This document shows, piece by piece, positions 1,913-22,893 of a DNA stretch of 64,000 bases. This DNA is from a bacterium (GTDB lineage Bacteria; 4484-113). Both the position numbers and the translations under genes were made by a program. Each line of letters begins with the position of its first letter. Positions within the stretch are counted from its first letter, which is position 1. Location of the stretch: contig JAGGTK010000072.1 in assembly GCA_021163765.1 (NCBI GenBank), forward strand, positions 6,072-70,071, given 5' to 3'. Below the pieces are notes generated by a model. It worked only from the letters and a program-made list of their open reading frames with translations, made no database searches and was not told where the DNA came from.

Positions 1913-4900
1913 GTGCTGAGACTTATAAAAATCGAGCTTTCCGGGTTCAAGAGCTTCGCGCTGCCCACGGCCATCGAAACCGACAACGACATTCTGGGCC
2001 TGGTCGGCCCCAACGGCGCGGGCAAGAGCAACATCCTCGACGCCGTCCACTTCGCGTTCGGCGAGCAAAAGCCCACAATGCTGCGCGTGGGGCGCGTTTC
2101 AGACATCATCTTCGGCGGCGCCAAATCCCATCCCCGGCAGAACCTGGCTCGGGTGCAGCTCACTTTCGAGTACTTCGAGAAGGACGATGAAGAACCGCAG
2201 CCGGCGGAAGAGCTTCAACTGATAACGCTGCCCGAGGAAGACGAGACGGTGGACTACGCGTCACGCCCGTACGGAAGCGAGGTCGGCGAGTTAGAGCCCG
2301 AACCGGAAACCGGGCCGGCGCCGGACGACGAGATTGGCGTTGCGGGCCTGGACAAGCTGCAGCCCGGCGACGTCATCACGCTTGCACGCAAGGCCTACCG
2401 GGACGGGCTTTCCGAATACTCGCTGAACGGCAAATCCGTGCGCCTCAGCACAGTGGACAGGTTCTTCTCGCGCTTCCAGCTGGGACGCTATGCCGCTTTT
2501 TCCATCAACCAGGGCGAGGTGGAGAAGAAGCTGCTCGCCAGCCCGCGAGAGATCCGCGAATGGCTGGGTGAGGCCAGTGGCGTGGCGCTGCTCCTGCGGG
2601 CCAAGGAAACGGTGGCGCGCAGGCTTCTGCGCAGCCGGCGCAACCTCACGCGGATAAGCGACATCCTGCTGACGCTACGCGACGACGTGAAGGCTTTAGG
2701 CGAACAGGCGGAAGACACGGAGCGCCACAACTACCTGGAGCAGCAGCGCCGGTGGCTGGCGGGATACCTGGCGCGGGGGCGCCTGCTCTCGGCTGCTACA
2801 AAGGCGGAGAAAATCCGCGCCGAGCGCACTAGCCATGCTCAGCGCCTGGCAAAGCTCGAAACCGGCATCGCTGCTCTCCGGGCGGAGCTGGAACAGGCCG
2901 AGCGCGAAGCCGCTGAACTGCTTCAGCGCGAACGCGGGATGATTGACCAGCTCAATGCGCAGCGCGACGCGCTATCCCGGCAGCGGATCGCCGAGAGCGT
3001 GCTGGAGGGAAAAAAGCGCAGCCTTACCTCCCGGCGCGATGAAGACGCCGGGCGGCTGGCCATTATTGAGAAGCGCACCGGTGAGCTTGCCGGGCGCTTT
3101 GAATACCTGCAGGAGAAGGTAAAGCGCAGCGCCGGTGCGCTAAAAGAGAGCGGCGAAACGCTGCGCAGCGCCGAAGAGCTTTTGCTGCGGGAGGAAAATT
3201 CCATCGCCTGGCTGAAAGATGAGCTTGCGTCCGCCGACAAGAAGCGCGTGGAGCTTCAGCAGGAGCTCGCGGTGACGCGTGAAAAACTCGCGCACGCGCA
3301 CCACGAGCGGACGCACACAGAAAGGAAGCTTGCCGAAGTTGAGAAGAACCGCGAAGCGCGGGCGTCGGAGCTTGCCCGCTTGAAAAGCGACAGCGACCAG
3401 CTCTCGCTCGATTTCGAGAAAAAGGAAGAGCGGCTGGTGGCTGAAGAGCGGCGCCTGGCGGAAGCCCGCAAGCGCTACGAGGAAGTTACGGACGCCCTTC
3501 GCGCGGCCGAGAAGCAGCTCGCTTCGGTCAACGAGCGGTCGGGTTATATGGCTGCGATGAAGAACACATACGAAGAACTCAAATCGGAGTTCTACACCAG
3601 CGACGGCGACGACACCGCCGCGCCGTCACTCACGCTAACGCCGCTGCTCGACCTTGTAAGCTTCGACGAGGAATGGGCCGACGCGGTGGAGCTTGCGCTG
3701 GGGGATGTCGCCAGGGCGCTCGTGCTGGCCGACGACGGCGGCGAATCCATCATTGACGAGCGCTCCCTGCACGGCATCTTCATCGCGCCGGGAACTGCGG
3801 CAAGCGCCAGCGCGGATACGCCCTGGGTGAGTCTCTGGAGCCAGTTACACGGTGGCGGCGGCGTTATCGCGGCGCTCAGGTCGTCGTTGGGCGAGATTGC
3901 CGTCGTGGAAAGCGCCGGTGAGGCGAACAAGCTGCTTGCCGAGAATCCCGCGCTCGCCGGTTGCATAATCCGCCCCGCCCTTACGCTGGTGACTCGCGGT
4001 GTCATCCGCAAGCCCGGAGCTCCCAAAACCTCGCTGCTCTTTCGCCGCCACGCCGAAATGCCGCGCGTGGATGAAGAGGTGGTTGAACTCGCAGCCAGGC
4101 GCGCACAGCTTCAAAAGCGGGTGCAGGAGCTCGAAGCAGAGCGCGACCGCTGGGCAAGCGAGTCCGTGCGCTGGGACAAGGCGGTGCGCAACCTGCAAAT
4201 GATGTCCCTCGACCTGCGGGGCAAGCTGTCCGAGGCCGTCTCGCGCGAGGAAGGCATTGCCACGGAGCGCGAGAGAATCGCCGAGGAGCACCGCAGCCTT
4301 ACCGCAAGGCGCGACGAGCTTGCCGCGCAGGAACGCGAACTGGATACGCGCGCGGATGAGCTCACCACCAAGCTGGAGAAAATCTCCGCTGAGACCGCAC
4401 GTTCTTCGGAGAGTCTTCAATCAACCGAGCAGGCGCTGGAAGAGCGCCGCAAGGAAATACGCGAATTAGAGAAGGCGCGGATGAAACTGGCGACGGAACA
4501 CGAGGTCGCAGAAACCCAGTTTGCGAGTCTCACCCGCGAGCGGGAGAATCTGGAAGCCGAGCACGACCGCCTGTCCGCGGAGATGGAATCCGCCGCCGCC
4601 CAGCTAAAGACCATCACGGTTGAACAAAAGGAGCTTGCCTTAGAGCTCAAAAAAACAGAAAAGCTCATTGCCCGCCTGGAGAAAGATGCAGGGAAAAGAG
4701 CCGAGGAGCAAAGCGGCCTTACCGGGCGGCGCGAGCGCATCACCGCCGAAATCCAGTCGCTTACCGAGAACCGGCAGAAGCTTGAAGCATCGTCCGGCGA
4801 CTACCAGGAACGGCTGTGGGAAGCCGAGAGCGAGGTGTCCGAGATTATCCGGGAGATTCACGGGAATCTCGGCATCTCCATAATCACCATGATGCACGAG

Positions 4901-7173: not shown

Positions 7174-8268
7174 CTATTCCAGCAACACATACTGCGTCGT
7201 GCGCTTCTTGGGCGTGAAGCCGGCGGCGGAAATCAAGCGGCGCAGTTCCGCTTCGGTCATTGAGTATGCAGTTCCCGCGGCGGCGACGACGTTTTCTTCG
7301 AGCATCGTGCCGCCCATGTCGTTTGCGCCGAAATAAAGCGCAAGCTGCCCCACCTTCGGCCCCATCGTCACCCACGACGCCTGTAAATTCGTGAAATTAT
7401 CCAGATACAGCCGCGCCACCGCAAGCGTGCGCAAATACTCCAACCCGCCCACGGCCGTGCCGCCCAGCGGCGTGTTCTCCGGCTGATAACTCCAGCAGAT
7501 AAACGCGGTGAAGCCCCCCGTTTCGTCCTGCAGCGCGCGGATGCGCTCCAGGTGCTCGATGCGCTCAGGATAAGTCTCCACGTGCCCGAACATCATCGTC
7601 GCCGTCGTGCGCATCCCCATCGCGTGCGCCTCCCGCATCACGCCAATCCATTCGTCGGCGGTGCACTTTCGCGGCGAAACTTCGCTGCGCACGCGGTCGG
7701 ATAAAATCTCCGCGCCGCCACCGGGCAGGCTGTCCAGCCCCGCATCGCGCAGTTTGGCTAGAACTTCGCGCACCGGCATCCCGAAAAGGGCGCTGAAATG
7801 CACAACTTCCGGCGGTGAGAACGAATGCAGCGTCGTTTCAGGAAAATCGCGCTTGATGCTGCGCAGCAACTCCAGGTACCACTCAAACGGCAGCGACGGA
7901 TGGTGCCCGCCCTGCATCAATATCTGCGTTGCGCCAAGCTCCACCGCCTCGGCGACCTTCGCCCTTATCACCGGCTCATATTCATTGATGTACGCGTCGT
8001 CGTCACCGATGTCGCGCGAAAACGCGCAGAAGCGGCAACGGCTTACACACACGTTTGTGTAATTGACATTTCGGTCGACGACATAGGTGACTATGCCGGG
8101 GTTTGCAACCTTCAGCCGCATCTCGTGCGCCGCGCTCCCCATCTTGTGGATGTCGCCCTTATGCAGCAGAAGTTCGCCTTCTTCGCGGCTCAGGCGTCCG
8201 CCGGCCAGCGGCTTTGCGCAAAGCCTTTCGGTTTCGTCGGGTGATAGGCTGCTTGGCTTATCCGACAT
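7174..8268 (-). CDS. mqnC: Radical SAM enzyme of the futalosine pathway, MqnC-like (cyclic dehypoxanthinyl futalosine synthase)
   Basis: 364 aa. CVSRCRFCAF radical-SAM cluster motif preceded by VDRNVNYTNVC. ILMQGGHHPSLPFEWY resembles the MqnC pattern as I recall it. The MqnC versus MqnE assignment is tentative. Confidence 0.7.
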   Translation of the reverse strand: MSDKPSSLSPDETERLCAKPLAGGRLSREEGELLLHKGDIHKMGSAAHEMRLKVANPGIVTYVVDRNVNYTNVCVSRCRFCAFSRDIGDDDAYINEYEPVIRAKVAEAVELGATQILMQGGHHPSLPFEWYLELLRSIKRDFPETTLHSFSPPEVVHFSALFGMPVREVLAKLRDAGLDSLPGGGAEILSDRVRSEVSPRKCTADEWIGVMREAHAMGMRTTATMMFGHVETYPERIEHLERIRALQDETGGFTAFICWSYQPENTPLGGTAVGGLEYLRTLAVARLYLDNFTNLQASWVTMGPKVGQLALYFGANDMGGTMLEENVVAAAGTAYSMTEAELRRLISAAGFTPKKRTTQYVLLE

Positions 8269-12516: not shown

Positions 12517-14469
12517 ATGAAACCGCAGGAACATTACGATTCCATCGTTATCGGCGCGGGTCACGCCGGATGCGAAGCCGCGCACGCCTGCGCCCGCCTG
12601 GGGCTGTCCACACTGCTGATAACCCTAAGGCTGGACACGGTCGCGCGCATGAGCTGCAATCCCAGCATCGGCGGTCCCGCCAAAGGTCACCTGACACGCG
12701 AGATAGATGCCATGGGCGGGGTGATGGGCGAAGTCATAGACCGCTCTTACATCAATTTGCGGTTGCTCAACACAGGGAAAGGCCCCGCCGTGCAGGCGCT
12801 CCGCGCACAGGCTGACCGGGCGCTTTACTCGCAGGTTATGCTCAGCCTGCTGCAAAACACTCCGAATCTGGCTCTGCTTGAGGGCGAAGTGGGCGAAATC
12901 CTCACCGAGCCTACGACCGATCCGCCGGGAGTGCGCGTGAAAGGCGTGCGGCTCACGGACGGCCGCGAGCTCTTCGCCCCCCGCTGCATCATCGCACCGG
13001 GAACGTTCCTTGCCGCAAAGCTGATGATAAGCGATGAAATCTGGGAAGGCGGGCGCTGGGGCGAGCCGGCGAGCAACGCTCTTTCCGCGAGCCTGCGCAA
13101 GCTGGGATTCCCGCTGGGGCGCCTTAAAACCGGCACCAGCCCCCGCCTGCACCGCGACAGCCTGGACTATACCGCGCTTTCGGTGCAGGTTTCAGAATGG
13201 CGGCACGACGCCTTCCGCTGCTACAGCGAGAGCGAAATTCCGCCGATGCTCCTTCCCTGCTGGCAGACCCGCACCGACGAGCGCACCGTGCGCTACATCG
13301 GCGATAACACTTCACTCTCGGCGCTTTACTCCGGGCACATAACCGGCGCCGGCCCCCGCTACTGCCCGTCCATCGAGGACAAAGTGCGCCGCTTCCCGGA
13401 CAACCTCTCGCATCCCGTATTCCTCGAACCCGACGGGCTGACGACGATGGAGGTTTACGTGCAGGGCCTGACCACCAGCCTGCCGGTTGAGGTGCAGCAG
13501 GGCTTCCTGAGCCGCACAAAGGGCCTCGAGCACGCGCGCATCCTGCGCCCCGGCTACGCCGTTGAATACGACTACCAGAATCCTGTCGAGCTGCACCCGC
13601 ACCTGGAAACCAAGCGCGTCGCGGGGCTCTACTTCGCGGGGCAGGTTAACGGCACAACGGGTTACGAAGAAGCCGGCGCGCAGGGGCTGGTGGCAGGCGC
13701 AAACGCCGCGCTGTCGCTGCTGGGACGTGACTTTCTGCCGCTCGCCCGCGACAATTCCTATACCGGCGTATTAATCGACAATCTGACCACGCTCGGCACA
13801 GAAGAGCCTTTCCGCATGTTCACCGCGTCCTGCGAATACCGCCTGCTGCTCCGCAGTGACAACGCCGCGCTGCGGTTGGGGGAAATGGCATACGACTGCG
13901 GGCTACTGCCCGAAAGCAAATTCGCCGTTCTGCGCGAGCTGAAGCGCCGCGTGCAGCTCTTCACGTCGGAGCTTGCAGCCGCGCGAACAGATGGTTGCGC
14001 CGAATCGCACGGGCTGGATTTGCCGCCGGGCTTTAAGGTACTCGATCTGGCGAAACGTCCTGAGGTCGACGAAAAGCAGTTCGCGGATTGCGCCCAAAGA
14101 GCGATTACCGGCAGCAACCAGGGCGTCAAGGAGAATAATATCCTCAGCGAAACCGCCCTGCGGCAGGTCTATATCGGCACAAAATACGCGGGCTACATAA
14201 AGCGGCAACAGGAAGAGGCGGCCCGGCTGCGCAAGTACGAGCGCATCAGGATACCGCTTGGGTTCGACTACGGCAGCGCGACTGGCGTCTCGTCAGAGGC
14301 GCGGGAGAAACTTGCGCTTGTGCAGCCAAAGACTCTGGGGCAGGCAACGCGCATTCCCGGCATCCGTCCCGCCGACATCGCCGCGCTAGCTATGGCGTTG
14401 CGGCGCCCAAAGCCCGCCGCTGAGGCGCGGTCTGCTAGAATAAGCACGTCCAGTCGGCGCAACCAATAG
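12517..14469 (+). CDS. mnmG: tRNA uridine 5-carboxymethylaminomethyl modification enzyme MnmG (GidA)
   Basis: 650 aa. FAD motif [16 protein letters not shown], with [25 protein letters not shown] and [15 protein letters not shown]. Confidence 0.95.
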
Positions 14470-14500
14470 GAGGAAAGGTAATGTTCTTCATGCGGTGGCT
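14422..14500 (+). repeat. Left copy of a diverged ~80-bp direct duplication (mnmG 3' end, intergenic region with SD, first codons of a small membrane-protein gene)
   Basis: GAGGCGCGGTCTGCTAGAAT...AGGAGG...ATGTTCTTCATGCGGTGGCT aligns with 16716-16795. That is 18 of 20 identical in the first block and ATGTTCTT plus TGCG.TGGCT in the last. This copy of the small ORF stops after 12 codons (MFFMRWLLYIAS*). Confidence 0.75.
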
Positions 14501-14697
14501 TCTCTACATCGCAAGCTGAGGCCGACAACCGTGGCGGCAATTGCAAAATAGGCCTCTTTCAGGTAATATTACTAATCGTCCCATGGGCAGGTGGGTTGCT
14601 CGTTTCTAGACCAAATAACTTTTGGTGTATTCACGGTGCATTTAATGCATGTGAAGCACTTCGGCATTGGCGTCTCAACTAAGGGGGAGATACCATT

Positions 14698-14898
14698 ATG
14701 AGCGAATCGACCAAGTCAGATGGAGAAGGGAAAGTGGCTATCGATCAGGTCTTGGAAAAACTGGAGAACTACCTCGATTCCAATGAAGCTCAAGAACGTC
14801 TTGAGCGTTACGCAAACACATTCGCGGAAAACACGAAGTCAATCGAAGAGCTGCGAGCCCTTGACCCGAAGCTGAGAAACTTGCGCATGACAATCTAG
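14698..14898 (+). CDS. Hypothetical small acidic, predicted all-helical protein (66 aa), first gene of islet 1
   Basis: ATG is preceded by AAGGGGGAGA (14681-14690). The DNA is AT-richer. Sequence MSESTKSDGEGKVAIDQVLEKLENYLDSNEAQERLERYANTFAENTKSIEELRALDPKLRNLRMTI has no recognisable family, no Cys and no GG leader. Confidence 0.55.
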   Translation: MSESTKSDGEGKVAIDQVLEKLENYLDSNEAQERLERYANTFAENTKSIEELRALDPKLRNLRMTI

Positions 14899-14932
14899 TA
14901 CCTGATCAATAACGTGAAGAGGTGGAACGTGG

Positions 14933-16624
14933 ATGACTGAGGTCACATCTGATGACCGGAACGTTTACGGATACACTATTGACAAGCTAGTAGAGCTCCT
15001 CAGCCGTCCTTTCTCCGAGGCATACGAGGAAATAGTTTGGAAGAAGTCACACATCAAATACTTCGAGGGCTATTTCGACAAACTCGACGCCAAAACCATC
15101 GTTGTTGAGTTAGAATACGTTGACAAGGATTTCATCGAGGACTACGCCAACTATTATGTGCGTTGCTTCGGCAGCATTAGGGATATTAGAGCAGCTTGTA
15201 CGCGCATCCACTTCTTCACAGGTAGTTTCAATGAGAAAGACTTCCTGACCTTTCTCCATTCGCCAGAGGAGTCAAACGACCAACTCCTCGGTGAATATCT
15301 TGGATTCGTGGTTGTCAAGCCACTCCCTGAGGCCATAATAGGTCGAACTTGCCTGAAAACGTATCCTAGAGAACAGGGCAGAACCTATCCTATCCTACGG
15401 TTGTACCGACCTTCGCTTCACGGTATTCAGCTAGAAGTTGAATCACTTGCCTTTCAGGAACAGGACACTGTGGCTGCTGCTTGCGCGACAACCTCTATTT
15501 GGTCTGCTTTCCACAAGACTTCCCAAGAATTTGAGCACGAACTACCTACCCCAGTTCGTATCACATCCAGAGCTACAGGCTCTGGAGACCGATCAAAAAG
15601 GGCTTTGCCATCTGAAGGCCTTCATGATGCAGAGATAGCCCGTGCGATAAGGTCTGTTGGGCTTGAAACTCATACGCTGCAGCTGAATTCGCCTTACCTC
15701 CCACACCGTTCTCCTGATCTTCTGAAAGCTATGGCCTACGCTTACACTAAAGGCCAGCTGCCTGCCATTCTCTGCGGTGCTCTAGTTCCTGATAATCCTG
15801 ACATCTTCCTGCAAAGCACCTTAGGCCTAGTCCCTGCTCAAGGCTATCACGCGCTGACTATCACGGGTTTTCGACTTGAAGGACAGCTAGAGTCTTGGTC
15901 CGACGACCGTCTCCCGGACCACAATGGTCTTATGCTCACTTCTTCAAGAACTAACAAGCTTTACGTACATGATGATCAAGTCGGTCCTTTCGCTAGAATG
16001 GAGTTCCTGTCTCCCAACAAGAGGATACACCTCAGCGAATGTGATACTAACAGCCCGCTAGCATGGACTCAGTTGTCATCTTCCTACTACTGGCCTACGC
16101 TCGACTGCTTTTCCTTGTTCGCTCCCCTCTATGCCATAGTGCCAGTCTATCATAAGATTCGGGTAGAGTTCCTAACAATCCTCGACGCAATCACCAAGGT
16201 TGATGGTCTATTGGAGAATGTTCGCCACGGAACGAATGATTACCCGATCGCTTCGCGATTAGAGTGGGACGTTTACCTGACCCGCACCCATGATTTCAAG
16301 GAGAGTATCCTTGCGCGTAAGGATCTATCCACGGAATGCCGCACGAAGATATTGCTGCGCAGCTTCCCGCGTTTCATGTGGAGATGTACCGGGAAGATAT
16401 CCGACGAGTCCATCATCGATGTTCTATTCGATGCGACAAGCTATAGGAGAGGTTATTTCTTCCACCACGCCCTATCCTATAATCCCCACCTGACAACAGT
16501 GCTACAAAAGTATGTAGGTCATAAAGCTACGCAAAACAGCCTATTAAACAAGGTCAGAGATCCGTGGTATGTGAAACTCATTGAGTTTATCGAGGGAGAA
16601 ATGCGGGAAGAGCTAACGGTATAG
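14933..16624 (+). CDS. Hypothetical 563-aa protein with a central papain-like (clan CA, C39-like/UCH-like) Cys-His-Asp motif order; N- and C-terminal regions unrecognised
   Basis: ATG is preceded by GAAGAGGTGGA. Motifs: FQEQDTVAAAC(184)ATTSIWSAF, QGYH(306)ALTITGF and KLYVHDD(347/348)QVGPF. The long clean ORF sits in AT-richer DNA with no competing ORF. Confidence 0.7.
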   Translation: MTEVTSDDRNVYGYTIDKLVELLSRPFSEAYEEIVWKKSHIKYFEGYFDKLDAKTIVVELEYVDKDFIEDYANYYVRCFGSIRDIRAACTRIHFFTGSFNEKDFLTFLHSPEESNDQLLGEYLGFVVVKPLPEAIIGRTCLKTYPREQGRTYPILRLYRPSLHGIQLEVESLAFQEQDTVAAACATTSIWSAFHKTSQEFEHELPTPVRITSRATGSGDRSKRALPSEGLHDAEIARAIRSVGLETHTLQLNSPYLPHRSPDLLKAMAYAYTKGQLPAILCGALVPDNPDIFLQSTLGLVPAQGYHALTITGFRLEGQLESWSDDRLPDHNGLMLTSSRTNKLYVHDDQVGPFARMEFLSPNKRIHLSECDTNSPLAWTQLSSSYYWPTLDCFSLFAPLYAIVPVYHKIRVEFLTILDAITKVDGLLENVRHGTNDYPIASRLEWDVYLTRTHDFKESILARKDLSTECRTKILLRSFPRFMWRCTGKISDESIIDVLFDATSYRRGYFFHHALSYNPHLTTVLQKYVGHKATQNSLLNKVRDPWYVKLIEFIEGEMREELTV

Positions 16625-16715
16625 CATTCGCATTGAGTACGGTTAGATTGTACGTATGAACAAATGAAGAGAAAGCCCGCAAATAGTAGATATATCGCCA
16701 GAGAGCTAACTGCGT

Positions 16716-16795
16716 GAAGCGCAGTCTGCTAGAATCAGTGTGTCGGGTAGCCGCGATTAATGGGAGGGTACAAAGATGTTCTTTTTGCGATGGCT
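16716..16795 (+). repeat. Right copy of the diverged ~80-bp duplication (pseudo-3' end of mnmG plus the true start of the small membrane-protein gene)
   Basis: GAAGCGCAGTCTGCTAGAAT...GGGAGGG...ATGTTCTTTTTGCGATGGCT. In the mnmG-equivalent frame it reads EAQSARISVCRVAAING, against [15 protein letters not shown] in the real gene. Confidence 0.75.
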
Positions 16796-16961
16796 AATAG
16801 GCGCTGTAGTGGCACTCGCCATCTGTGCGGCCGGCTTCGCTCTCGTCCAGCACTTGATGAAAGTTCATCCTGACGGAGTGATGGTGGCGTCGGTTTCGAG
16901 TATCGTGACTTCTATAGCTGCGGTATTCGCGCTGTTCCCCCGGAAGAAAAAGAAGACCTAG
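16776..16961 (+). CDS. Small membrane protein (61 aa, two hydrophobic segments, lysine-rich tail)
   Basis: MFFLRWLIGAVVALAICAAGFALVQHL...IVTSIAAVFALFPRKKKKT, with SD GGGAGGG upstream. A truncated paralogous start sits at 14481. Confidence 0.5.
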   Translation: MFFLRWLIGAVVALAICAAGFALVQHLMKVHPDGVMVASVSSIVTSIAAVFALFPRKKKKT

Positions 16962-19846: not shown

Positions 19847-21285
19847 GCCGGTGCTTCATCCTTCTTAGGTACACCGTCCTTGCGCTGGCGGCATTTGCGT
19901 TTTTCATTTTCGCACCCGCCGGGCGCCCGCAGGAAAACATGCTGAATTACGCCCGTCGGCAAATCGACACGCTCACCGAATTCGACCTCACCGAGCTTGG
20001 CGCTGTGCCATCGCACATACTTTTTCCGCAGGTGCCAACTACGGACACCGGCTTCACCCATAACCTGAAGCAGCGCCGCGTAATCTGCGTCCTGCCCGGC
20101 GACGAAATGCACGTCTTTGAGGCAATCACCTTGCGAACACTGGACTCGCTCGTCGACGACAACATCGCGCAGGTGCGCGACGAACTTGAAAACATCAACA
20201 CGCTTGCCAACCGGCGCGACAAGCTCACCTCCCAAATGGATGAGCGCGCAGGCCTGCTGGACGACTTGCTGGGCGCTCTTCGCAGGCAACGCGGCGGTTC
20301 TCCTGGCGACCAGTCGCGCCAGTGGTGCCGCGCCGCAGCTGCGTTTGCGCTCGAGCAGGCAAAGGGCGAGCGGGAGCTGGTGCGCCTGGAGGTGGACAGC
20401 AAGCGGCAGTCGGTTCTGTACCAGATTTCGCGGCTGAACCTCTCCGCGGTGCTGAACACGGCAACCACCGGAGAAGACCTTTCACTGCTATCGCTCCGCG
20501 ACCCCGAAATTATCAACCGGCAGCTTATAGCGCTGCTCACAGACGAGTCCGTGGACATCGCCGCCCGGCTGCGAACACCCGCAGACGAACTTGCCGCGCT
20601 GCATCTGCGCGAAGGGCGGCTGGTCACTGAGGTATTCGGGTTGGCCGAGGATACGGACGCCGGGGCGGTGCTGGAATCTATAGCCAGCGGTGATTCCGCC
20701 GCTGTGGGCGCGGTTCTGGAGTCGCCGAGCCGGTTCGCTGAACTCATCGAAGTCGAGACGGGACTCGCAACAGCAAGTGCACGCGAGAGAGAGCTCGGCG
20801 CACTGCTCGTTGAAGTGAACGCCACGCGCGGGGAAATGATGCGCCACGGTGTGCACCTTTCGGCAATCCAGCGTGTCACCGTCAGCCCGCGCGAGTTCGA
20901 CGTGCCCCGGCTGTCGCGGACGCAGCTTAAATCGCTTTCGAACGCGAAGCAGTGGGAACTCGGCCAGTGGAGCGTGTTCCTGCGCAGCCTTGCCGCGAGC
21001 TTCGGCACAGCCGGAGGGCGAGCGGTCAGCATCCCTCCGCCGCAGGGAGTCTTCAGCGGCCCGAAACGCATCCGGCTGTCGCCCAACGAAGTCCCTGCAT
21101 TCCTGGCAGCCGTTTCGCAGCTACCCTCAAGCGACTACGACCGCATCGCCGAGCTTCTGGAGCTGGCCTCGTCGGAATACGCGAGCGCTGTAGCGGCGGG
21201 CGGCGAAGAAGCGGCGTTCTGGGAGTTCATCAGTTACTTTTTGCAGGACACGGCGCGCCGGGGGCTCACGTCTGCCAGCGGTTAG
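19843..21285 (+). CDS. Hypothetical membrane-anchored or secreted coiled-coil protein (480 aa)
   Basis: The start overlaps the miaB stop (GTGA). It has an N-terminal hydrophobic segment (LRYTVLALAAFAFFIFAPAG) and plausible helical composition. The 379-aa ORF on the opposite strand is S/R-rich and looks like a GC shadow. Confidence 0.5.
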   Translation: MSRCFILLRYTVLALAAFAFFIFAPAGRPQENMLNYARRQIDTLTEFDLTELGAVPSHILFPQVPTTDTGFTHNLKQRRVICVLPGDEMHVFEAITLRTLDSLVDDNIAQVRDELENINTLANRRDKLTSQMDERAGLLDDLLGALRRQRGGSPGDQSRQWCRAAAAFALEQAKGERELVRLEVDSKRQSVLYQISRLNLSAVLNTATTGEDLSLLSLRDPEIINRQLIALLTDESVDIAARLRTPADELAALHLREGRLVTEVFGLAEDTDAGAVLESIASGDSAAVGAVLESPSRFAELIEVETGLATASARERELGALLVEVNATRGEMMRHGVHLSAIQRVTVSPREFDVPRLSRTQLKSLSNAKQWELGQWSVFLRSLAASFGTAGGRAVSIPPPQGVFSGPKRIRLSPNEVPAFLAAVSQLPSSDYDRIAELLELASSEYASAVAAGGEEAAFWEFISYFLQDTARRGLTSASG

Positions 21286-21315
21286 AACTGCGCGCCTTCG
21301 AGCGCCGACTGGCAG
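21283..21315 (+). repeat. Left copy of a perfect 33-bp direct repeat flanking the higB/higA-immA cassette
   Basis: TAGAACTGCGCGCCTTCGAGCGCCGACTGGCAG is identical to 22891-22923. Its reverse complement encodes CQSALEGAQF*, duplicating the mtnP C-terminus. Confidence 0.95.
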
Positions 21316-21394
21316 AAAGCAGTGCGAGTTAGGGGGCCGCGCGTCCGCGCTTTCTCATCACTCAGGATATATAGTGAAACATGCAGAGAAGTGG

Positions 21395-21431
21395 TATAAT
21401 GTAGATGAATAATGTTAACACTTAGTGTTAA
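21395..21431 (+). promoter_or_regulatory. Putative higBA promoter (-10 TATAAT with upstream TGG) and palindromic operator
   Basis: GTGGTATAAT with TATAAT at 21395-21400. Inverted repeat TTAACAC-TTA-GTGTTAA at 21415-21431, directly upstream of the higB ATG at 21438. Confidence 0.5.
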
Positions 21432-21437
21432 TGAGAT

Positions 21438-21788
21438 ATGCACCGTGATCTGGAAATCTCGTTCAAAACGCCAAAGCTGGCGAAACTTTGCAGTTCACGC
21501 GATTCAGCCCGACGAAGGTGGGGTACCGAGAGCGGCGACAAGATACTCAGGCGGCTGAACGAGATGAAGGCGGCAGATACTCTCGCGGATTTGATTAAGT
21601 TGCCGCAAGCTAATTGCCATATGCTCCACGGCGACTTGAAGGGTCAGTGGTCAGTGAACCTCGCCTTCCCTTACCGGCTGCTGTTCATCCCGGCAAACGA
21701 GCCGCTGCCGTTGAAGCATGACGGCTCAGTTGATACTGCTAGGGTCACGGCGGTGATGGTTTCTGGCGTGGAGGATACCCATGGATAA
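21438..21788 (+). CDS. higB: HigB-type toxin (plasmid maintenance system killer, RelE/ParE superfamily)
   Basis: 116 aa. ISFKTPKLAKL...GDKILRRLNEMKAADTLADL...HMLHGDLKGQWSVNLAFPYRLLF matches the HigB/killer-protein pattern. Toxin-first order, with an 8-nt overlap with the next gene. Confidence 0.8.
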   Translation: MHRDLEISFKTPKLAKLCSSRDSARRRWGTESGDKILRRLNEMKAADTLADLIKLPQANCHMLHGDLKGQWSVNLAFPYRLLFIPANEPLPLKHDGSVDTARVTAVMVSGVEDTHG

Positions 21789-22893
21789 GATCAAAACATA
21801 CAAGTTCGCACCGGACTATGTCCCGCCTCCGGGCGAAACCCTGCGGGAGACGCTGGAGTTTCTGGGAATGTCGCAGGCGGAACTCGCCCGGCGCACCGAC
21901 AAACCCGAGAAGACAATCAGCGCCATCGCATCCGGCAGCTCTTCGATTACTACCGAGACAGCCATTCGGCTGGAGCGCGTGCTTGGGGTACCCGCGAGTT
22001 TGTGGCTGAACCTTCAGCGCCAGTATGATGAGGCCGAGCAGCAGCGCAAAGAGAGAGCGGATCTGGAGACGAAACTGTCGTGGGTGAAGAACTTCCCGTT
22101 ACGGAACATGATTGAGTACGGGTGGTTGCGGAAATGCGAGGACAAGGTGGAGCAGCTGAACGAGCTGCTGAGCTTTCTTGGCGCCGCCTCACCCAAAGCC
22201 TGGGAGAGCAACTTCCAGCACATGGAAGCGTCTTTCCGCCAGCCAAGACATGCCAAGCAGAACCGCTATGCGTTGGGCGCTTGGCTGCGAAGGGGAGAGG
22301 CGATTGCAGCGCACTCGACCTGTAATGCTTATAGCGAAAGCGCTTTCGTCCAGGCGCTTTCCGACGCAAGATGTCTGACGCTCGCTCCGGCTGAGCGTAT
22401 CGGACGTGACATTAACCGTGTATGTAACCCTTGCGGGGTTGTAGTGGTGTTTGTGCGAGAGCTATCGGGTGCACCCGTAAGCGGCGCCACGCGCTGGCTG
22501 ACGCCGCGGAAAGCGCTCATCCAGCTCAGCCTTAGGTACAAAACCGACGACCAGCTCTGGTTCAGCTTCTTCCACGAAGCGGGACACATCCTGATGCATC
22601 ATAAGCGCGGCATTCTGCTTGAAGATGACGGGTGCGCCGGGCCGGACGAGGACGAAGCCCACCGGTTCGCCGCCGACACCCTCATCCCGCAAGCTGAGTG
22701 GCGGAGCTTCACCGCAGGGCTGCGCAAGCCCTATATCAGCGAACGTGCTGTCAGAGCTTTTGCCCGGAGCCTGGGGATAGCACCGGGCATAGTGGTTGGC
22801 AGGTTGCAGCACGAAGGGCTGCTGGCGCACTCCAAGCTCAACGCGCTCAAGCGCAAGCTGAAGTGGAGAGCATCTGAGAAAGGCGGAGACTAG
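21781..22893 (+). CDS. HigA-type HTH antitoxin fused to an ImmA/IrrE (M78) zinc metallopeptidase domain
   Basis: N-terminus PPPGETLRETLEFLGMSQAELARRTDKPEKTISAIASG...LWLNLQRQYD is the HigA XRE HTH. C-terminal FFHEAGHILMH is the HEXXH of the ImmA/IrrE family. Confidence 0.8.
   Translation: MDKIKTYKFAPDYVPPPGETLRETLEFLGMSQAELARRTDKPEKTISAIASGSSSITTETAIRLERVLGVPASLWLNLQRQYDEAEQQRKERADLETKLSWVKNFPLRNMIEYGWLRKCEDKVEQLNELLSFLGAASPKAWESNFQHMEASFRQPRHAKQNRYALGAWLRRGEAIAAHSTCNAYSESAFVQALSDARCLTLAPAERIGRDINRVCNPCGVVVVFVRELSGAPVSGATRWLTPRKALIQLSLRYKTDDQLWFSFFHEAGHILMHHKRGILLEDDGCAGPDEDEAHRFAADTLIPQAEWRSFTAGLRKPYISERAVRAFARSLGIAPGIVVGRLQHEGLLAHSKLNALKRKLKWRASEKGGD

Follow-up and report, generated by a model that had tools for sequence, protein, structure and literature searches.

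A horizontally acquired two-gene cassette beside mnmG encodes a predicted C39-like papain-fold enzyme and a conserved small partner, a possible conflict module

What do two closely spaced genes of foreign composition, set beside mnmG and matched by no named family, encode, and what might they do for the genome that carries them? The genes lie on the + strand of a 64,000-nucleotide stretch of the bacterial contig JAGGTK010000072.1 (the whole of which is called the window here), a small gene at 14698-14898 (66 aa) and a large gene at 14933-16624 (563 aa), with a gap of 34 nt between them. A purine-rich string resembling a Shine-Dalgarno (SD) sequence stands upstream of each start (AAGGGGGAG at 14681-14689 and GAAGAGGTGG at 14916-14925), so that the layout given in a preliminary description of the window, two co-oriented open reading frames (ORFs) 34 nt apart and each with a purine-rich SD, is correct. 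The numbers of homologs and the co-occurrence of the partner place the reality of this gene pair far beyond chance and confirm it. We argue below that the large protein has a papain-like core, that the small protein is its dedicated partner, and that the two arrived as an inserted cassette, and we put forward, more tentatively, that the pair may act as a conflict module in which the partner restrains the peptidase.

No model in Pfam, NCBIfam, PADLOC or PHROGs matched the large protein, and a sequence search of the PDB, whether with the single sequence or with a profile, returned no match; a hit of the whole protein to a family already described in those libraries, one of the findings that would have refuted the preliminary description, was thus not obtained. 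No description of the pair was found in the literature searched, whether by concept, by Pfam name or by accession. The family to which the protein belongs comprises 3,448 representative clusters at 50% identity, nearly all of 460-585 aa and aligning from end to end, and among the candidates scored in a 90%-clustered database there were 1,627 matches, every one of them labelled 'hypothetical' and free of Pfam domains. A signal peptide, a transporter domain, a cell-wall-binding module and an adenylating or ATP-binding domain were all undetected in the large protein, and it is most likely a cytoplasmic enzyme of three domains.

The catalytic nature of the central domain is indicated by its conservation and by its modelled structure. 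In alignments of 32, 150 and 92 diverse homologs the residues Q177, C184, H306, D347 and D348 are invariant throughout, and the active sites are intact in all 150 members of the second alignment, which implies that selection maintains activity. The preliminary description had quoted strings around these positions (Q175/Q177, C184, H306 and H346-D347-D348) and had named C184 and H306 as residues whose variation among homologs would count against it; the strings and numbering are accurate, and neither residue varies in any of the three alignments. An AlphaFold2 model of the whole protein (predicted local distance difference test, pLDDT, 82.4; predicted template modelling score, pTM, 0.86) has C184 opening the helix 181-200 at its N-terminus, with Q177 on the strand before it; H306 stands at the start of the strand 305-315, and the strand 340-347 has D347 at its end. 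As modelled, this placement of Gln, Cys, His and Asp on the secondary structure is the papain-like arrangement. The roles predicted from the sequence are those of an oxyanion residue for Gln177 (codon 15461-15463, + strand) and a nucleophile for Cys184 (15482-15484), together with His306 (15848-15850) and Asp347 (15971-15973).

Fold searches with the model point in the same direction, consistently though with weak E-values (0.03-0.9). The best three Foldseek matches in the PDB are C39 peptidase domains (PCAT1 twice and ComA), with a calpain core at rank 8, and the best match in BFVD is the endolysin of a Gordonia phage (probability 0.95, TMt 0.51), followed by entries named 'papain-like' or 'cysteine protease' from pandoraviruses and a phaeovirus. 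There were also scattered matches to GNAT and ESCO folds, none with a probability above 0.14, and a likeness of the large protein to these folds was for that reason not credited. When the 92 homologs were scanned one by one, 22 gave a sub-threshold match to Peptidase_C39_2, three a weak match to BtrH_N and one a match to Peptidase_C70 (E=3.6e-5). The window protein itself has no Peptidase_C39_2 match even at E≤10. The connection is made by a 726-aa homolog from a Pseudomonas aeruginosa plasmid (locus L090, 6962-9139), which matches positions 4-141 of the 143-position Peptidase_C39_2 profile (PF13529) with 24.7 bits, above the curated gathering cutoff of 24 bits, and which aligns with the window protein at E=3e-42 across all of the catalytic motifs. 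The window protein is therefore a distant relative of Peptidase_C39_2 by transitive homology rather than a scored member of it.

Taken together, the alignments, the model and the fold and profile matches make it very probable that the central ~240 residues (about aa 173-410, 15449-16162, + strand) are a distant, C39_2-like domain of clan CA. The invariant Gln, Cys, His and Asp, their papain-like placement and the agreement of fold and sequence signals bear out the clan CA cysteine peptidase core proposed in the preliminary description. That description had also seen a double resemblance, to C39-like peptidases and to ubiquitin C-terminal hydrolases (UCH, family C12), of which the first half is upheld by the fold and profile matches and the second is not, since UCH/C12 has no entry in the Pfam match lists or among the 50 matches listed from each of the PDB and BFVD fold searches.

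The status of the small gene was examined at 79 genome loci containing 8,934 ORFs. Upstream DNA was sufficient at 77 of them, and at 76 the large gene is closely preceded by the end of a small co-oriented ORF; 62 of these ORFs fall into one BLAST cluster; the median gap from the stop of the small gene to the start of the large one is 9 nt. A jackhmmer search seeded with the 66-aa protein recovered about 70 targets from the 8,934 ORFs, all adjoining or fused to a large gene, with no off-target match among those ORFs. The hidden Markov model (HMM) derived from it finds the partner at no fewer than 66 of the 79 loci, with 64 matches upstream, three downstream (L035, L065 and L069) and one fused (L067). 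No partner was detected at the other 13 loci, two of which are without upstream DNA; the remaining ones have a suitably sized ORF at the expected position. Partners and enzymes show correlated pairwise identities (Mantel r=0.55, a value reached by none of 2,000 permutations), which indicates that both genes travel and diverge together, and no third gene is conserved across the loci. At one locus (L026) two tandem partner copies (7216-7392 and 7809-7982) stand upstream of a single large gene. The small gene is conserved as a true partner and almost always accompanies the large gene, as the preliminary description supposed it might in asking after its co-occurrence with homologs. The same description called it a tiny acidic partner, and here only the partnership survives: the isoelectric point is 4.8 for the window copy and ranges from 4.1 to 11.1 in the family, with a median near 8, so that acidity is not a conserved property and is specific to the window copy. 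No recurrent Pfam or NCBIfam family was found among 48 partners, the RelB and MazE matches being those of single members at E of about 0.007. A hint that the 66-aa protein is a RelB-type antitoxin (E=0.007) was accordingly set aside as noise, being absent from the rest of the 48 family members.

What the partners have in common is concentrated toward one end of the molecule. The window copy, a predicted two-helix protein and a divergent member of a family of ~60 aa, ends ...LDPKLRNLRMTI-stop, and the family consensus reads W-[LV]-x-S-x-E-G ... [VI]-D-P-x-x-L-x-x-P-[FIV]-T-[LIV]-COOH, with Thr as the penultimate residue in 52/67 members and Leu, Val or Ile as the last residue in 59/67. The conserved S-x-E-G motif falls between the two predicted helices. 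The single fusion, at L067, is of the large-then-small order, the sole order that leaves the tail free; it comes from a genome locus, and no small-large fusion occurs among 264 retrieved proteins.

These features bear on one alternative, that the small protein is a substrate which the C39-like domain cleaves to release an active peptide or a mature partner, much as leader peptidases of bacteriocins and quorum peptides process the small helical precursors encoded beside them. The best structural matches are, after all, leader-peptide-processing C39 domains, the two genes are adjacent and diverge together, and a conserved S-x-E-G motif lies between the predicted helices. The partner family, however, has no double-glycine motif, and its conservation runs opposite to that of precursors of ribosomally synthesized and post-translationally modified peptides, the N-terminus being variable and the extreme C-terminus the most conserved part of the protein. 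There is, moreover, no exporter, ABC-transporter domain or tailoring enzyme conserved nearby, and the large protein has neither a signal peptide nor a transporter domain of its own. Processing of a precursor is for these reasons considered unlikely.

The remaining two domains of the large protein are less readily placed. The N-terminal domain (aa 1-172, 14933-15448, + strand) is no less conserved than the peptidase core, with E59, Y62, D70, R91 and H93 invariant and D64, C78, C89 and C140 near-invariant. Modelled alone it reaches a pLDDT of 88 and a pTM of 0.84, and the model has no meaningful fold match in the PDB (best E of about 1, probability 0.14). The residues C78, C89 and C140 together with H93 could form a Cys3-His metal site, judging from their conservation (codons 15164-15166, 15197-15199 and 15350-15352 for the cysteines and 15209-15211 for the histidine), and this candidate site, along with E59, Y62, D70 and R91, hints at a second functional centre. 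The C-terminal alpha/beta domain (about aa 411-563 plus the stop, 16163-16624, + strand) has conserved motifs of its own (YHKIR, W445, W483 and FDATD), and whole-protein searches gave no family assignment for the C-terminal ~150 residues. The preliminary description could place neither terminal region in any family, and neither matches a known family in the searches made here. The C-terminal region is replaced or extended in plasmid variants of 719 aa (L088, 6914-9070) and 726 aa (the L090 homolog mentioned above), which keep the N-domain and the C39-like core. The extension that they share carries the motif GHP[ST][ML]TG..AARI[AG]GE...N[FY][FY]SGRYS and has no Pfam or PDB match; it may be an added effector or sensor domain.

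How the pair came to lie beside mnmG can be read from the DNA around it. The G+C content is 0.481 across 14504-16713, against 0.628 in the left flank and 0.642 in the right, a contrast that had been noted earlier as DNA visibly richer in A+T than its surroundings. This region is bracketed by an imperfect direct repeat of ~83 nt whose copies are 67% identical. The left copy (14421-14503) comprises the last ~49 nt of mnmG, with its stop at 14467-14469, a stretch resembling a ribosome-binding site (RBS), and a truncated start of a 61-aa ORF (ATGTTCTTCATGCGGTGGCT); in the right copy (16714-16798) the mnmG 3' end is present as a displaced, non-coding duplicate, after which come the native RBS and start of the 61-aa ORF. 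Between the left copy and the small gene lies the 5' leader of the cassette (14504-14697, + strand), which includes the SD-like AAGGGGGAG and in which no sigma-70 consensus promoter was detected; promoter and terminator scans gave results at chance level.

A close relative supplies the unoccupied site. Metagenomic contig L091 has the order miaB-selA-61-aa ORF-mnmG-maf without the cassette, its MiaB, SelA, MnmG, Maf and 61-aa proteins being 81-93% identical to those of the window, and at its empty site (7520-7680, - strand) only ~18 nt lie between the mnmG stop and the point where the 61-aa ORF begins. The site is likewise unoccupied in L092, a more distant relative. Because the junction of mnmG, the 61-aa ORF and selA exists without the pair in a close relative, the pair constitutes an inserted cassette, and the earlier claim that the module is an insertion is substantiated by this site and by the bracketing repeat. 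The cassette is horizontally acquired, measures about 2.2-2.3 kb and has a foreign G+C content. Alignment of the empty site to both junctions identifies the repeat as a duplicated target that runs from the 3' end of mnmG through the RBS into the 61-aa ORF, of which it takes in the first ~20 nt. The right copy is 79% identical to the empty site of L091, the same level as native flanking DNA (~81%), and the left copy, which now forms the last ~49 nt of mnmG, is 64% identical to it and is probably the copy that the cassette brought along. Such a pattern suggests elements that integrate into the 3' end of a gene and provide a surrogate end, in the manner of Campbell-type integration, although the contrast between the two copies rests on 83 nt and leaves the direction of integration only suggestive. 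No integrase is encoded in the 2.2-kb insert, which holds only the two genes. Occupied and empty sites together make an unusually clean natural before-and-after, in which the 3' end of mnmG is rebuilt by a duplicated target of 83 nt with no integrase in the cassette.

The wider distribution of the family tells of the same mobility. A pattern scan of 185,579 species genomes gave at least 217 confirmed matches, a number that is a lower bound since the scan relied on two peptide patterns. By record title the hosts are Planctomycetota, Nitrospirota, Cyanobacteria, Bacteroidota, Acidobacteriota, Armatimonadota, Myxococcota, Thermodesulfobacteriota, Pseudomonadota (Pseudomonas, Burkholderia and Methylotenera), Clostridia, Omnitrophota and others, and the distribution is sparse and patchy across many phyla. 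One metagenome-assembled genome (MAG) of the Aminicenantes (DAOWCY01) carries two separate paralogous copies of the module (L032 and L042). None of 50,697 phage records contains the family and five of 2.9 million IMG/VR contigs carry it, results that speak neither for nor against a role in conflict; with no copy in phage records and only five IMG/VR loci, the cassette is not typically virus-borne. The relatives encoded on these five viral-classified contigs (L171-L175) share 29-42% identity with the large protein. Four plasmids bear the family, and a gene of 52-57 aa precedes the large one in all three that were examined. The neighbours on Shewanella baltica pS19501 include a TrlF-type ATPase and a Tn3 transposase, and a Hymenobacter plasmid has a caspase-family protein and a DEAD/DEAH helicase as neighbours. 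P. aeruginosa p4782_002 carries the pair within a block flanked by IS21, where it immediately follows ImmA/IrrE plus helix-turn-helix (HTH) and multiubiquitin-ThiF-DUF6527 genes. The pair is a self-contained, horizontally mobile operon of two genes.

One set of neighbours recurs in a specific form. At 7/79 loci (L014, L033, L040, L044, L052, L060 and L062, from Bacteroidota and several Pseudomonadota), and also on the P. aeruginosa plasmid of L090 (2349-6163), the pair directly adjoins genes of Bub type accompanied by a CapH-like or CapP gene. The Bub-type genes are JAB-E1 genes and, where detected, multi-ubiquitin or DUF6527 genes. At least three gene orders occur among these loci, and in some of them the CapH-like gene is immediately upstream of the small gene and co-oriented with it. 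For two sparse systems this adjacency is more frequent than expected. Bub operons have been described from mobile or defence loci as complete without this pair, and their biological role has not been established (PMC11601596); the pair goes unmentioned in the Bub papers, and neither of its proteins matches the BubA-E domains (the ubiquitin-like protein (Ubl), E2, JAB, E1 and the DUF6527 protease).

The association raises a second alternative, tied to Bub, in which the papain-fold cysteine serves an acyltransferase or transpeptidase of BtrH-like or transglutaminase-like character that attaches or removes the small protein through its C-terminal carboxylate, or that acts on Ubl conjugates. Weak BtrH_N matches do occur in the three homologs noted above, the partner is conserved to its very last residue, as protein modifiers are, and the invariant residues of the N-domain could be a second active site. 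The adjacency itself, in several orders and in two phyla as well as on the plasmid, and a Bub role that is still open (PMC11601596) would leave room for such a part. On the other side, about 90% of the loci have no Bub genes, and the operons are described as whole in themselves. The partner, furthermore, is a helical protein and not a beta-grasp one, its last residues are T-[LIV] instead of Gly, and no adenylating or ATP-binding domain was detected. Transfer or conjugation is thus regarded as very improbable.

There is some reason to think that the pair instead takes part in genetic conflict. On the analogy of known two-gene systems, our preferred reading is that it may be a toxin-antitoxin-like or abortive-infection module whose peptidase is restrained by the partner, a proposal that we hold tentatively and at somewhat less than even confidence. 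The partner would bind the peptidase and hold it inactive, its conserved tail, P-x-T-[LIV]-COOH, plugging the substrate cleft in the manner of a product or a pseudo-substrate. Were the partner lost, degraded or displaced, whether by phage infection, by stress or by loss of the cassette, the peptidase would be freed to cleave cellular or invader proteins, and growth arrest would follow. A toxin-antitoxin or anti-phage role is plausible in view of the architecture, the patchy distribution and some of the neighbours; binding, inhibition by the tail and toxicity, like a role in defence or addiction, are inferred.

Among the neighbours of the pair are genes with strong PADLOC matches, namely GajA (2e-182), HmaA/B, DrmD, BrxH, BrxL and a type I restriction endonuclease, as well as capP (4) and RmrA (4). 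Raw counts of PADLOC hits were nevertheless discarded as proof of an enrichment in defence genes, because 143 random genes at selA-anchored loci gave 199 PADLOC families, largely generic kinase models, against 226 for the neighbours; the counts do not discriminate, and no quantitative enrichment is claimed. An enrichment of the pair next to defence genes, one of the proposals of the preliminary description, is therefore not demonstrated, and the PADLOC models to which it had pointed gave nothing for the proteins themselves (zero families for either at E≤10 in PADLOC-DB v2.0.0). This null result and the random-gene control are among several observations that weigh against a conflict module. The 143 immediate neighbours are, by Pfam, mostly unrelated ordinary genes, the commonest families being Peptidase_M78 (4), DEAD (4) and ResIII (3). 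No recurrent DNA-binding or antitoxin domain (ribbon-helix-helix, HTH, AbrB or Phd-like) appears among the 48 partners, the E-values of the PDB fold matches are weak (0.03-0.9), and the large protein, at 530 aa and with three conserved domains, would be an unusual toxin. The invariant cluster of the N-domain (E59, Y62, D70, R91 and H93) suggests, moreover, a second activity for which a restrained peptidase does not account.

Several of these same observations favour a third alternative, that of an accessory protease outside any conflict, in which a regulatory or quality-control peptidase works with an adaptor or chaperone subunit and is merely horizontally mobile. The mostly metabolic or housekeeping character of the immediate neighbours would agree with it, as would the lack of a PADLOC match, a control without clear enrichment, and active sites that are kept intact in every homolog aligned. 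It sits poorly, on the other hand, with a distribution as extremely sparse and patchy as 217 matches in 185,579 species genomes, with the foreign G+C content and the empty site in a close relative, and with copies on plasmids and on islands flanked by insertion sequences. The recurrence of specific defence genes and CapP regulators beside the pair and the presence of two paralogous copies in one MAG likewise argue against it. We consider such an accessory role quite unlikely. Whether a conflict module, if it is one, would be the founding example of a protease-based conflict system, with a new three-domain scaffold, an orphan N-domain with a possible metal site, restraint by a tail plug, and a subset that is co-regulated with CapH-like or CapP genes or coupled to Bub, is a more far-reaching proposition, and one less likely than not.

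Other features of the locus lie outside the module. The 61-aa ORF (16776-16961, + strand) encodes a protein with two transmembrane segments and marks the boundary of the cassette; at its end it shares a few nt with the end of the convergent selA ORF. It is found at the same position in relatives, 93% identical in L091, 66% in L092 and ~47% in L093 and L094, which indicates a real gene for a small membrane protein, part of the host backbone and without annotation. It was considered as a third component of the module and rejected, since it is present at the empty sites and has no counterpart downstream of the pair in the 79 other loci. In L093 the distance from the end of mnmG to the start of the 61-aa ORF is ~660 nt (2524-3188), compared with 15-18 nt elsewhere, and the same intergenic site may there hold a different small insertion, in which case it would be a recurrent spot of integration. 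Farther along the window (~21564-22893) a 74-aa gene is followed by a 370-aa gene fusing HTH_3 to Peptidase_M78 (ImmA/IrrE-like), in another local dip in G+C content (~0.52-0.54 at 21200-21800); this gene pair is a separate regulatory or mobile islet.

The large family and the partner family both lack a name or annotation in the curated libraries used. If the pair is a toxin-antitoxin or anti-phage module, it would add a system with a protease effector and an unusual form of restraint, the tail plug. As a candidate conflict module it is one of many. Relatives are carried by culturable strains of Pseudomonas, Methylotenera and Shewanella, and a cassette as compact as 2.3 kb is easy to test; the adjacency to Bub, for its part, opens a way to experiments on a pathway whose function eluded its discoverers.

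Comparison with known systems shows where the pair stands among them. It shares with the C39 leader peptidases (PCAT1 and ComA; MEROPS C39), its best fold matches, the order Gln-Cys-His-Asp, in which the Cys opens a helix. C39 peptidases act on small helical peptides encoded nearby. The fusion to an exporter that is characteristic of PCAT-type C39 enzymes was not found in the window protein, which has no ABC_tran, ABC_membrane or Peptidase_C39 match. Unlike the C39 exporters, it is soluble, belongs to a family of ~530 aa and has two extra conserved domains, and its partner has no double-glycine site; unlike in C39 precursors, the conserved element of the partner is the free C-terminus. In the literature searched, Peptidase_C39_2 turned up mainly in surveys of phage endolysins, from which the window protein differs in having no signal peptide or cell-wall-binding module. 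The papain-like clan also includes AvrRpt2 (Peptidase_C70) and BtrH, an acyltransferase of butirosin biosynthesis. They give weak and sporadic matches only, they differ from the window protein in domain architecture, and neither a biosynthetic gene cluster nor type III secretion forms the context of the window pair.

Bub (6E/DUF6527) operons resemble the pair in being sparse and mobile, but the pair is no described component of them and occurs without them at ~90% of its loci. The likeness to type II toxin-antitoxin systems is more extensive, and includes a tightly coupled pair with the small gene first, an occasional reversed order or fusion, a faster-evolving small partner, patchy horizontal spread and copies on plasmids; the differences are a putative toxin of ~530 aa with three domains and a small protein without a detected DNA-binding fold. 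Finally, the staphopain-staphostatin and SpeB-Spi systems offer an analogy, though only that, in which a gene for a cysteine protease and a gene for a small dedicated inhibitor share one operon. Staphopain and SpeB are secreted virulence factors, and their inhibitors, beta-barrel or prodomain-like in structure, are cytoplasmic and encoded in the same operon. There is no sequence or fold relationship between these systems and the window pair, in which both proteins would be cytoplasmic and the partner a helical hairpin with a conserved C-terminal tail. By its fold and catalytic layout the window protein is of the C39/C39_2 type of clan CA, and by score it is a member of no curated family; what is new is a known catalytic fold set in a new three-domain architecture and joined to a new family of partners.

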